Shown piece after piece: positions 31,602 through 37,554 of a stretch of 64,000 nucleotides of DNA; the stretch's first letter is position 1; every line of letters starts with the position of its first letter. Source of the stretch: Candidatus Dojkabacteria bacterium (GTDB taxonomy: Bacteria; Patescibacteriota; Dojkabacteria; SC72); contig JAXGRK010000001.1 of the NCBI GenBank assembly GCA_040765985.1, forward strand, positions 136,513 to 200,512. Reading direction: 5' to 3'. A model generated the notes under the pieces. It ran no database searches. It was given only the letters and a program-made list of their open reading frames with translations, and was not told where the DNA came from. A program made the translations under genes and the position numbers.

Positions 31602-32155
31602 AGTATATATAAAGATATAAATTTAATACTTACTCTACTACGGTTTAGCCCACCAGAATGGTTGCTCCACCCCGTTATTATCAAACCACTTACCGTGTCT
31701 CATTAGCTGCTCCATAGCTGCTCCAGTGTATGTTACATCAACTTCTGTAAGATATAAATCTAGAAGTGGATTGTTATCCCATTTAGTAAAGATATTCTCA
31801 TATTGGACATATTTAACATCTTCTATGGAGTAAATGATGCCCCAGCGTAATCAGATGAATAGGTAGCTTTCTTTACATCATCTACCCAAAACTCTGCAGG
31901 TACATCTGTTATCTTTTTAAATTGTAATCTTGTTATCGCATCAATATCCTCTCCTAATGGGTATCGTATATCTACATACTCTCTTTGCCATTTAAAAACC
32001 GTTGCACTTGTCGTAAAACCACCAGATGGGAACGTACTACCTGAATCCCAAGAACTAACTGTTACAGCCCCTGTATCATTATCTACAGTAGCTAAGTCAC
32101 CTTGTGCAATATACTCTGTTCCTGAAGATGTTTCCTTCAACAATTACTTTCTGTC

Positions 32156-34936: not shown

Positions 34937-37554
34937 ACTACTATTATCGGATAGGCAACATAATCATCTACACCATCAAACTTCAAAGCTCCTGCACCCC
35001 ATCTTCTTGTATCACTACTCCATCCGGTTCCTATAGCTGCATCTTGTCCTGTTGTTGTCATATTATATAGGGTACCATTACAAGTACTACCACAACTTCC
35101 TCCACTTGCAGCAGTAGTACCACTTGTTTCATTGAAGTCCCATTGTGCTAATAGTCCAGTAGTACTATACGGAGTTTCTCCGTCTCCTGTATCATCTCCT
35201 ACAGGACTCCATGTAATAGATTCTATTGTTGTACTATATTTCATATCCAAGGGTGCGGATGTATGTACACCTTGAACTTTTTGAAGATATTTTAAATTAT
35301 ATATTCTAAATATTGTATCTGCAGAAAGAGCTGCATTGAATACTTTAACCTCATCAATTGTTGCATCAAGATATCTAGTCCATATATGACCCCCTATTAG
35401 TGTTATTGAGCCAGTGCTACTTACAGCCGAAGTACCAGTATCCGTATATACCAACTGACCATCAATATAGGCACTTGGGTAGCCACTAGAGTTTAAAGTC
35501 ATTGCAACATGATGCCAACCAGTACCTATTTTTGCACCTGTATTTATCCATCTTACTCCTTGGAAATATAGAATGAGGTTGTTACCAGCATCCTCCATTG
35601 TTGTATTACCTACTCCCATACCGAAGCCATCTGAATAACCAATTTTTACTATTGTTCCCATCTCCGAGGTAGAATCTAAATTAACCCAAGCGGATAGTGT
35701 AGAGTTTGTATTACCTAAAGTGTGATCTGTACTTACAACAACATAATCATGAGTGCCATTAAAACTAATTGCACTACCTAAAACACCTTCATCTATTGAA
35801 GTACCCGCTCCTAAATACCCATCATTATTATTACTAGTTGAATCCTGGAAATCCTTAGCGATATCATGAGAAGAAGCACCGGAATCTCTTACCCATATCT
35901 CTCCAGCATAAAACATACCGTTTTCTTGAAATCGTATTGCTTGGCCAGTAGTATAAGTACCTGAATATGTAGCAGCACCATAGTTAGGTCCCAAGGTTTG
36001 AACAACAGAACCTCCTATTGACAAAGTACATGAGGTCCCAGCTGCCGTGTACCAGTTACCCCATTTGACATATACTTCATCAGCATAGGAAGGAAGTGTT
36101 TTTTGAATATATCCGTAAGGTGTAGAGTTATAATACATTTGTACATAACCAGCGGTTCTTGGATAACTTGTTGATTCTATAGTAGTCAAATAAGTAGTGT
36201 ATCCCGCTGTAGTTAAATCAGCAGATGATTTAATATTTGAATAACTCAATGCGTATCCATAAGGGTCTGTATCTCCAGATAAAGATGAAACAAAGTTGTC
36301 TAGTAGTGTCCAACCACCTCCATCATAATCCATATTACAGTACGCAGAAAATGGAGCATTACCACCTGAACCATCTGGATCAATTCTATAAAGACCAGAT
36401 GCAGTTGTTCCATAATTACGAAGTTCAGAACAGTCTGCTGGATATGAGATTGAGTTATTATCTAAATCTTCATCAAATTCCCAATATCCAACCAAGCTAC
36501 TATCTAGCGTATTCGCTTCAGGATCTTCTAACCTAACCTGTGGCCCTGTTACTACCTCTGTATTATAGTTATAGCCAGTATCAAACTCAGTAGTTGTATC
36601 ATGAACAATACTTGGATCTATTCTAATTGGAAATACTCTTTCTTCACTAAACAACCAGAGAGGATTTAATGTAATTACTATCTTATAGCTATTGTCTTTT
36701 GTATTAAATATCTCCATAGTAACATCTGTTGTCATTGCCTTTGCTCCATCTACTGCAAATGTTGGTAAGAAATGTGCAATGTAATTATCATCAGTATCAG
36801 TAATATAGTATTTAATCTCTGTTTTATTCCTAACTACAGCCATACTCCTTTTTAAAACTAGACCATCATCTAGTTTTAATTCAAAAACATACTCATTTAA
36901 TGGAACCAAGCACTCTGTATCCACTTCGCAATTGTTATACGCTTCCATATTTCTAATCACTATCTCCTCTTTAACACCTAAACCTTTAAGTATCTGATAC
37001 TCAATATCTATACCAGGATATACATCTTTGTTTAACACTGTTAATTTGGAAATGGGATCGTCAGATTCCTCTGCACCTATTACTCTTCCTGAGGTAATTA
37101 CCTCTGTTGTAGTTTCTACATTATTTACAGCTAAGCTATGGGCTATACTATTTATACTCTTTAATTTCTCATCCTCTGAAGTAGTACCACTCCATTGAAC
37201 AGAGGATAGGGTCATTTCAAAACCTTTTTTAGAAGGAACAATCTTTTGTTTAAGCTCTTCCCACTTACTAATCTTCTTATCCTCTTCAAAAGGATTCTCG
37301 TTATCTAATACACTCTCAAACCGAACATACTGTTTAGATGTATCTGTTTTATCACCAAATCCAACTTTAAATTTTGGGTTAACATTTTCAAAAAGAAAGT
37401 TATTACTCTCCTTAATATCTTCATTGGGTTTTGGAATTGAAAACAGATATACAAGAGTAGATACTAGTAAAAATATGAAAATCCCAAGTATATATGGAAT
37501 GCCTTTCTTAATATCTATCTTGAATTTTCTTTTTATCTTCCTAGATTTATACAC
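34816..37554 (-). CDS. N-terminal fragment of the giant LamG protein (TM anchor, fibrinogen-like domain, LamG 1, start of LamG 2)
   Basis: 912-aa uninterrupted ORF from the track. The last ~45 aa are out-of-frame read-through. Confidence 0.7.
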   Translation of the reverse strand: MYKSRKIKRKFKIDIKKGIPYILGIFIFLLVSTLVYLFSIPKPNEDIKESNNFLFENVNPKFKVGFGDKTDTSKQYVRFESVLDNENPFEEDKKISKWEELKQKIVPSKKGFEMTLSSVQWSGTTSEDEKLKSINSIAHSLAVNNVETTTEVITSGRVIGAEESDDPISKLTVLNKDVYPGIDIEYQILKGLGVKEEIVIRNMEAYNNCEVDTECLVPLNEYVFELKLDDGLVLKRSMAVVRNKTEIKYYITDTDDNYIAHFLPTFAVDGAKAMTTDVTMEIFNTKDNSYKIVITLNPLWLFSEERVFPIRIDPSIVHDTTTEFDTGYNYNTEVVTGPQVRLEDPEANTLDSSLVGYWEFDEDLDNNSISYPADCSELRNYGTTASGLYRIDPDGSGGNAPFSAYCNMDYDGGGWTLLDNFVSSLSGDTDPYGYALSYSNIKSSADLTTAGYTTYLTTIESTSYPRTAGYVQMYYNSTPYGYIQKTLPSYADEVYVKWGNWYTAAGTSCTLSIGGSVVQTLGPNYGAATYSGTYTTGQAIRFQENGMFYAGEIWVRDSGASSHDIAKDFQDSTSNNNDGYLGAGTSIDEGVLGSAISFNGTHDYVVVSTDHTLGNTNSTLSAWVNLDSTSEMGTIVKIGYSDGFGMGVGNTTMEDAGNNLILYFQGVRWINTGAKIGTGWHHVAMTLNSSGYPSAYIDGQLVYTDTGTSAVSSTGSITLIGGHIWTRYLDATIDEVKVFNAALSADTIFRIYNLKYLQKVQGVHTSAPLDMKYSTTIESITWSPVGDDTGDGETPYSTTGLLAQWDFNETSGTTAASGGSCGSTCNGTLYNMTTTGQDAAIGTGWSSDTRRWGAGALKFDGVDDYVAYPIIVVWILQQEILLLKLGLKVVCNKVLFMACNYYKRRWNSKIRL

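Follow-up and report, generated by a model that had tools for sequence, protein, structure and literature searches.

Can a locus whose reading frame is broken at four sites still encode a single protein, and what might such a protein do at the cell surface? This question is raised by a minus-strand gene of a Candidatus Dojkabacteria bacterium (contig JAXGRK010000001.1 of assembly GCA_040765985.1), which was analysed together with its surroundings in a window of 64,000 nucleotides, i.e. the whole stretch of DNA considered here. A preliminary description made from the sequence alone had read positions 31638-37554 as one giant gene in need of frame correction, which encodes a membrane-anchored protein of the candidate phyla radiation (CPR) with a fibrinogen-like GGGW domain and five LamG domains. 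The best explanation of the present data, to which we assign a probability of about 0.6, is that the locus specifies a single giant cell-surface protein with type-II anchoring, which is held by a transmembrane helix and carries a lectin-like array outward, and that its gene is probably intact.

Read without correction, the gene falls into four pieces in three frames (37554-34816, 34963-32156, 32143-31823 and 31850-31638), the first of them within a stop-to-stop segment of 37578-34816. The indel sites were placed by reading the junctions and by aligning the translated pieces to intact homologues. After repair, one continuous frame runs from a GTG start at 37554 to a TAG stop at 31638-31640 on the minus strand; with both ends located, the limits originally drawn for the gene are correct. 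The repaired protein of 1,972 residues aligns colinearly over its entire length with intact homologues that measure 1,469-3,306 residues, which bears out the proposal of a single giant gene. At the first junction (J1) the alignment of the second LamG domain continues across the break, and the closely spaced lesions J2a and J2b form a -1/+1 pair with two stops in between. The stops met in the shifted frames are TAA, TAG, TAA and TAG. An alternative genetic code with TGA as a sense codon (4 or 25) is ruled out and does not rescue the gene, because the disrupting stops are TAA and TAG; an in-frame TGA was found only in the leucyl-tRNA synthetase (LeuRS) gene. Programmed frameshifting was likewise rejected, as no slippery heptamer is present at any of the four sites. 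Promoter and terminator scans around the gene gave counts not above those in shuffled sequence.

The N-terminal anchor claimed in the preliminary description is clearly recognizable. Nine of the first 19 residues are lysine or arginine, ahead of a single hydrophobic segment with a Kyte-Doolittle maximum of 2.62 at residues 22-40, and no other segment of the protein reaches 1.6. The same layout of tail and helix is found in 41 homologues. The rest of the chain is hydrophilic, rich in threonine, glycine and serine, and contains paired cysteines. A modular type IV pilin with a lectin module was considered and discarded, the N-terminus MYKSRKIKRKFKIDIKKGIPYILGIF... having no prepilin motif (class III signal, G/FTLIE-type).

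The helix is followed by a family-specific N-module. Tail, helix and N-module together (the first ~365 residues) occupy the same N-terminal position in 41 homologues with identities of 38-63%. The N-module itself is 40-64% identical across the homologues, follows the conserved pattern KPNDxI...NPxFxVxFG...IDPSIVH and comprises 52 invariant columns, all of which are kept in the window protein. Its AlphaFold2 model, calculated from the family alignment, is all-beta, with a predicted local distance difference test (pLDDT) of 76.9 and a predicted TM-score (pTM) of 0.78. In a Foldseek comparison no PDB structure matched at E<1e-3; the weak resemblances obtained (E above 4e-3, TM-score <=0.31) are to beta-sandwich domains of the glycosidase families GH2, GH97 and GH63. 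A word-indexed search with the N-module alone returned only four Dojkabacteria fragments, and an exhaustive profile search was needed for the wider family; of the 1,412 cluster representatives that it yielded, 93 have E<1e-30. Distant relatives match chiefly the second half of the module, which holds the "VYPGIDIEYQILKGLGVKEEIVI" stretch flagged in the preliminary description as typical of wall-associated proteins. This assignment is not supported: neither Pfam nor NCBIfam gave a match, and the relatives of the N-module are, where checked, LamG giants of Patescibacteria. All five representatives checked with Pfam are LamG giants, and the only three relatives with an organism name belong to Patescibacteria or Dojkabacteria. 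A WapA-like wall-associated protein of the RHS/YD type was dismissed as well, since no RHS or YD family appeared in the Pfam or NCBIfam scans.

The five LamG domains of the middle region are well supported by the Pfam family Laminin_G_3 (PF13385), which matches the repaired protein in five stretches with 364.7 bits (E 5e-110; gathering cut-off 27.6 bits); their boundaries were taken from an internal hidden Markov model (HMM). The suggestion that the first and the fifth domain are paralogues also holds, as they are 52% identical, compared with 28-36% for every other pair. Additional Pfam matches, Toxin_R_bind_N and Laminin_G_2, represent the same lectin fold. Assignment to the fimbrial protein TafC (NF052521) was rejected, because its model reaches 109.2 bits against a cut-off of 410 and covers the LamG-like part only. 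When the N-module, the C-terminal module, the region after the GGGW motif and the linkers between the LamG domains were searched against Pfam at E values up to 1, only one sub-threshold match, to DUF4983, was obtained.

The GGGW cassette between the N-module and the LamG array extends over ~230 residues but is fibrinogen-like only over the first ~50. The NCBIfam model GGGWT_bact (NF040941) matches residues 375-418 with 57.9 bits (cut-off 30; model positions 2-46 of 46), Pfam Fibrinogen_C (PF00147) is covered only at profile positions 2-48 of 221, and fibrinogen-related domains of the PDB do not align beyond residues 368-424 even when a family profile of nine sequences is used. The DCS...YCDM..GGGWT motif and the disulfide correspond to the A-subdomain of eukaryotic fibrinogen-related lectins such as ficolins, tenascin, FGL1 and tachylectin 5A (profile E down to 8e-10), whereas their B and P subdomains are not recognizable here. 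In fibrinogen-related domains these two subdomains hold the ligand pocket. A complete fibrinogen-related domain, which would require coverage of all ~220 residues including both subdomains, was therefore rejected; of the original assignment the GGGW motif stands and the wider fibrinogen likeness does not. The ~170 residues behind the motif are conserved together with it as one cassette, are 57-63% identical in nine homologues, and move with it, the cassette beginning anywhere between residues 402 and 1687 of the homologous proteins. All 65 invariant residues of the cassette are retained in the repaired protein.

The C-terminal tail ...MRHGKWFDNNGVEQPFWWAKP, already noticed in the preliminary description, belongs to a second conserved module; throughout the family the key residues of this tail do not vary. 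Across 27 homologues the C-module shows identities of 40-72%, the motifs VFKWQ (within a conserved VFKWQxE), MRHGKWF and FWW being invariant, and all of its 26 invariant columns are kept after frame repair. It mostly lies at the extreme end of the homologues; however, up to 1,614 residues may come after it, which excludes a cleaved sorting signal. In the AlphaFold2 model based on the family alignment (pLDDT 74.7, pTM 0.58), which like that of the N-module is of moderate confidence, the first ~105 residues fold into a beta-barrel, for which pLDDT exceeds 90. No PDB entry was matched by Foldseek at E<1e-3 (TM-score <=0.31); weak matches in BFVD to tail fibres or collagen repeats (E 2e-4 to 1e-3, TM-score <=0.31, large root-mean-square deviation) are a lead only. 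No Pfam, NCBIfam or PHROG model matched either end module. A pattern scan detected relatives of the C-module in 126 stretches of GTDB species genomes, distributed over Dojkabacteria, Microgenomates lineages and Parcubacteria. As relatives contain two or more C-module proteins per genome (L032 and L034 in one metagenome-assembled genome, L058 and L071 on one contig), sometimes ~30 kb apart, the family is multi-copy in some Patescibacteria.

A search with the repaired protein retrieved 83 homologues of 1,200-3,400 residues, of which the named ones are from candidate division WS6/Dojkabacteria. Their middle region varies in length and content, with one to eight LamG domains and in some cases Gly_rich_2, Ig_Rha78A_N, DUF2341 or pentaxin-like modules. 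It is consequently the two end modules, and not the LamG array, that are conserved and define the family. So far as the matches carry names, the family so defined is confined to Patescibacteria, and the window protein is its local orthologue, composed of the basic tail with transmembrane helix, the N-module, the C-module and a reshuffled middle. The family is abundant but unnamed, and among these giant LamG surface proteins of Patescibacteria the window protein is an ordinary member, not a new kind of system. Anchor, both end modules, LamG arrays and syntenic position are shared with giants such as XD93_0281 of WS6 bacterium 34_10 and UR96_C0006G0002 of WS6 GW2011_GWC1_36_11, from which the window gene differs by its four indels and by the number and order of its middle domains, with the GGGW cassette straight after the N-module and then five LamG domains. 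Other LamG/concanavalin surface proteins of CPR and DPANN organisms, for which a role in attachment is discussed, likewise form lectin-fold arrays on ultra-small, presumably episymbiotic cells, but the respective reports are based on the Pfam domain alone (PMC11310336, PMC12911398), and we came across no account of the two conserved end modules. TafC of the haloarchaeal Tat-fimbriae (PMC11821415) has LamG-like sequence similarity in common with the window protein, which, however, carries no Tat signal and differs in architecture and lineage. Periscope-type adhesins of Gram-positive bacteria (Aap/SasG; PMC9999234) are alike in concept, being long, anchored, repetitive proteins that project lectin-fold domains; they are attached by a C-terminal LPXTG motif instead of an N-terminal helix, and there is no sequence relationship.

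The positions of the gene, its modules, its lesions and its neighbours are compiled in Table 1. At no fewer than ten related loci an intact orthologue of 1,469-2,663 residues is followed by open reading frames of ~210-230, 225-257, 540-580, 270-285 and 600-625 residues, which correspond in size and order to the cyclophilin-type peptidyl-prolyl isomerase (PPIase), ComEA, ComEC, the metallo-beta-lactamase-fold protein (MBL) and arginyl-tRNA synthetase (ArgRS) of the window. Another giant reading frame usually precedes the LamG orthologue, and its C-terminal ~190 residues are 50-70% identical to those of the giant neighbour in the window. A giant gene, the LamG gene, PPIase, ComEA, ComEC, MBL and ArgRS hence form a conserved Dojkabacteria locus. 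This is synteny at the level of the lineage and by itself implies no functional link with DNA uptake. The giant neighbour starts with a signal peptide (MIKINCPKVAKNLFILLIVSLVFAISISTSAYA) and gave weak PHROG tail-fibre matches only and no Pfam match. ComEC and MBL are separate reading frames with an ATGA overlap; since nine of the related loci show the same split (~540-580 and ~270-285 residues), it seems genuine for the lineage.

Table 1. Positions of the LamG gene, its modules, its lesions and neighbouring genes in the window (residue numbers refer to the repaired protein; a slash marks the break).
Feature	Position	Strand	Residues	Remarks
Whole LamG gene	31638-37554	-		1,972 codons after repair of four 1-nucleotide indels, plus TAG stop
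K/R-rich cytoplasmic tail and single transmembrane helix	37432-37554	-	1-18; ~19-41	N-in signal anchor; from hydropathy
N-module	36580-37431	-	~42-325	285 residues, all-beta, family-specific; one conserved Cys pair (209, 215)
GGGW motif	36283-36453	-	368-424	like A-subdomain of fibrinogen-related domain; Cys375-Cys406 pair
Rest of GGGW cassette	35785-36282	-	425-590	conserved with the motif; no match in any model
LamG domain 1	35311-35754	-	601-748	Pfam and internal HMM
LamG domain 2	34505-34971	-	862-1017	Pfam and internal HMM; contains J1
LamG domain 3	33791-34225	-	1111-1255	Pfam and internal HMM
LamG domain 4	33062-33520	-	1346-1498	Pfam and internal HMM; best Pfam stretch
LamG domain 5	32315-32761	-	1599-1747	Pfam and internal HMM
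C-module	31638-32290	-	1756-1972	217 residues; small beta-barrel, less well modelled region, terminal MRHGKWF...FWW
Lesion J1 (~34948)	34943-34953	-		deletion, YVAYP/DNSSLDF, inside LamG domain 2
Lesion J2a (~32170)	32163-32177	-		deletion, NNYM/ENIDVG, in C-module
Lesion J2b (~32125)	32120-32132	-		insertion, VEGNI/SGTEY, 44 nucleotides after J2a, in C-module
Lesion J3 (~31826)	31820-31831	-		deletion, ASFTP/IEDVKY, in C-module
Second giant secreted protein	37592-47099	-		upstream of LamG gene
Cyclophilin PPIase	30978-31601			downstream of LamG gene
ComEA	30208-30955	-		downstream of PPIase
ComEC	28700-30214	-		DUF4131 plus Competence domains
MBL	27897-28703	-		metallo-beta-lactamase fold
Three tRNAs				between MBL and ArgRS
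ArgRS	25818-27620

The earlier attribution to a CPR organism agrees with the named WS6/Dojkabacteria homologues and with further features of the window, namely a GC content of ~34%, a form III RuBisCO and a short 23S rRNA. The RuBisCO large subunit gene (20554-21939, minus strand) is intact and of form III-type (TIGR03326, 380 bits, profile positions 8-415 of 426). Form III RuBisCO is typical of the nucleotide-salvage metabolism of CPR bacteria. The 23S rRNA (61090-63835, minus strand) covers all 2,925 positions of the Rfam model with only 2,505 nucleotides and is in this sense shortened; a 5S rRNA lies directly downstream, and no 16S rRNA is present in the 64,000 nucleotides. A run of ATP-grasp reading frames (5221-10382, plus strand) consists of RimK-related glutamate ligase-like and cyanophycin-synthetase-like fragments; several adjacent frames correspond, one after another, to consecutive sections of the cyanophycin synthetase profile and may be broken pieces of larger genes.

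We propose the following scenario for the LamG protein. The transmembrane helix would hold it in the cytoplasmic membrane and the N-module would form a membrane-proximal base or support, from which the GGGW cassette and the five LamG jelly-rolls would project as a lectin-like array of the beads-on-a-string type. About ten globular modules might in this way be directed outward, over tens of nanometres if extended. This array may attach to glycans or proteins carried by a host cell or by particles, and the ligand binding that it supplies would change quickly between lineages, whereas the conserved N- and C-modules presumably serve something common to all members. The C-module in particular might contact a conserved partner (the envelope of the cell itself or a different conserved component) rather than a variable ligand. 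A role as surface ligand-binding protein or adhesin is plausible and the usual guess in the field, and attachment to a host or to particles, as already proposed for LamG/concanavalin proteins of CPR bacteria (PMC11310336, PMC12911398), would be its most economical reading.

The nature of the four breaks has to be judged against the remaining genes of the window. LeuRS (47213-49661, minus strand) is in three pieces: its reading frame contains a TGA at 47895-47897, directly ahead of GAKMSKSLGN, and is shifted near 47690; UvrA (16067-18853, plus strand) is distributed over four consecutive reading frames and the class II prolyl-tRNA synthetase ProRS (19061-20544, minus strand) over three pieces, the NCBIfam profile coordinates running on from piece to piece in both. 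A QEGLA-family gene is split in two. Because two essential, normally single-copy aminoacyl-tRNA synthetases, LeuRS and ProRS, cannot both be dead, indel errors must be present in the window sequence. ComEA has what looks like one T too many in a T5 run (~30624-30640, PGVYCF/PKGASVIEAV), a typical homopolymer-length error. The LamG gene has 0.7 lesions per kb, similar to LeuRS (0.8), UvrA (1.1) and ProRS (1.4). On account of this density, the retention of every invariant residue in N-module, cassette and C-module, and the intact orthologues at every related locus examined, we consider it very probable that its four breaks are sequencing or assembly indel errors, and hence that the organism probably possesses an intact gene. 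The contrary view, that the LamG gene is a genuine, recently inactivated pseudogene whose indels are real and accompany the decay of the neighbouring giant and of RadA, is in our judgement unlikely. It can nevertheless draw on several observations which weigh against the preferred interpretation. Four lesions have accumulated within 5.9 kb, with stops in the shifted frames that no alternative code removes, and three of the four are not in runs longer than 2-3 bases. The lesions are patchy and densest in dispensable genes. More than 20 frame changes and stops interrupt the neighbouring giant, whose last ~190 residues (38150-37592) alone are split over three frames, and RadA/Sms (52700-54560, minus strand) is dispersed over at least eight short pieces in all three frames, with the zinc finger, Walker A, KNRFG and Lon-like segments recognizable in different frames and a 1.4-kb stretch of the highest lesion density in the window. 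ClpB, Rho, ArgRS, RuBisCO and RlmN are free of lesions, a pattern that real decay of dispensable genes would also produce. In scans of genome and metagenome collections no near-identical strain was found, the best match being 73% in the C-module, and an exact query with the adjacent PPIase gene had no result. In an assembly with frequent indels even in essential genes, any call of a pseudogene is unsafe.

Even with an intact gene, adhesion is not the only conceivable function. LamG domains are generic scaffolds, and the best conserved parts of the protein are its ends and not the presumed binding array, for which reason its essential function may not be adhesion. For the same reason an envelope scaffold is a serious, if rather doubtful, alternative: the protein would be a structural component tethering the membrane to a surface layer, its ends docking to the membrane and a putative, conserved partner in the envelope while the middle varies under phage or immune-like pressure. 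The fixed syntenic place beside a second giant secreted protein with a conserved C-terminus of its own and the occurrence of several paralogues per genome in relatives would fit such a role; yet the Pfam and NCBIfam scans revealed no SLH, cell-wall-binding or S-layer domain, and lectin-type arrays are more typical of binding proteins. Somewhat more speculative still is the idea that the C-module is an undescribed Patescibacteria-specific device, a distal tip or assembly domain like the C-terminal domains of phage tail fibres, which would make the conserved contact between episymbiont and host and leave to the LamG array only the tuning of specificity. Capture of polysaccharides or other substrates for nutrient scavenging, with LamG domains and GGGW cassette as carbohydrate-binding modules and possibly with unrecognized catalytic regions, appears very improbable. 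The concanavalin-like lectin/glucanase superfamily does include such modules as well as glycoside hydrolases (Pfam description of PF13385), and the N-module faintly resembles glycosidase beta-sandwiches, but these fold matches are not significant, and no glycoside hydrolase family appeared in the Pfam scans.

In the literature, giant LamG proteins commonly figure as the probable means of attachment of ultra-small CPR bacteria, though described by no more than a Pfam label. The analysis of this Dojkabacteria locus demonstrates that unannotated end modules define the family, that the lectin array between them is reshuffled among genomes, and that the gene has a fixed place beside a second giant secreted protein and ComEA/ComEC. 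Of modest interest are accordingly the strong conservation of the two end modules and that of the locus with its two giant genes. The module profiles and the invariant residues provide concrete handles for testing attachment in cultivated relatives.

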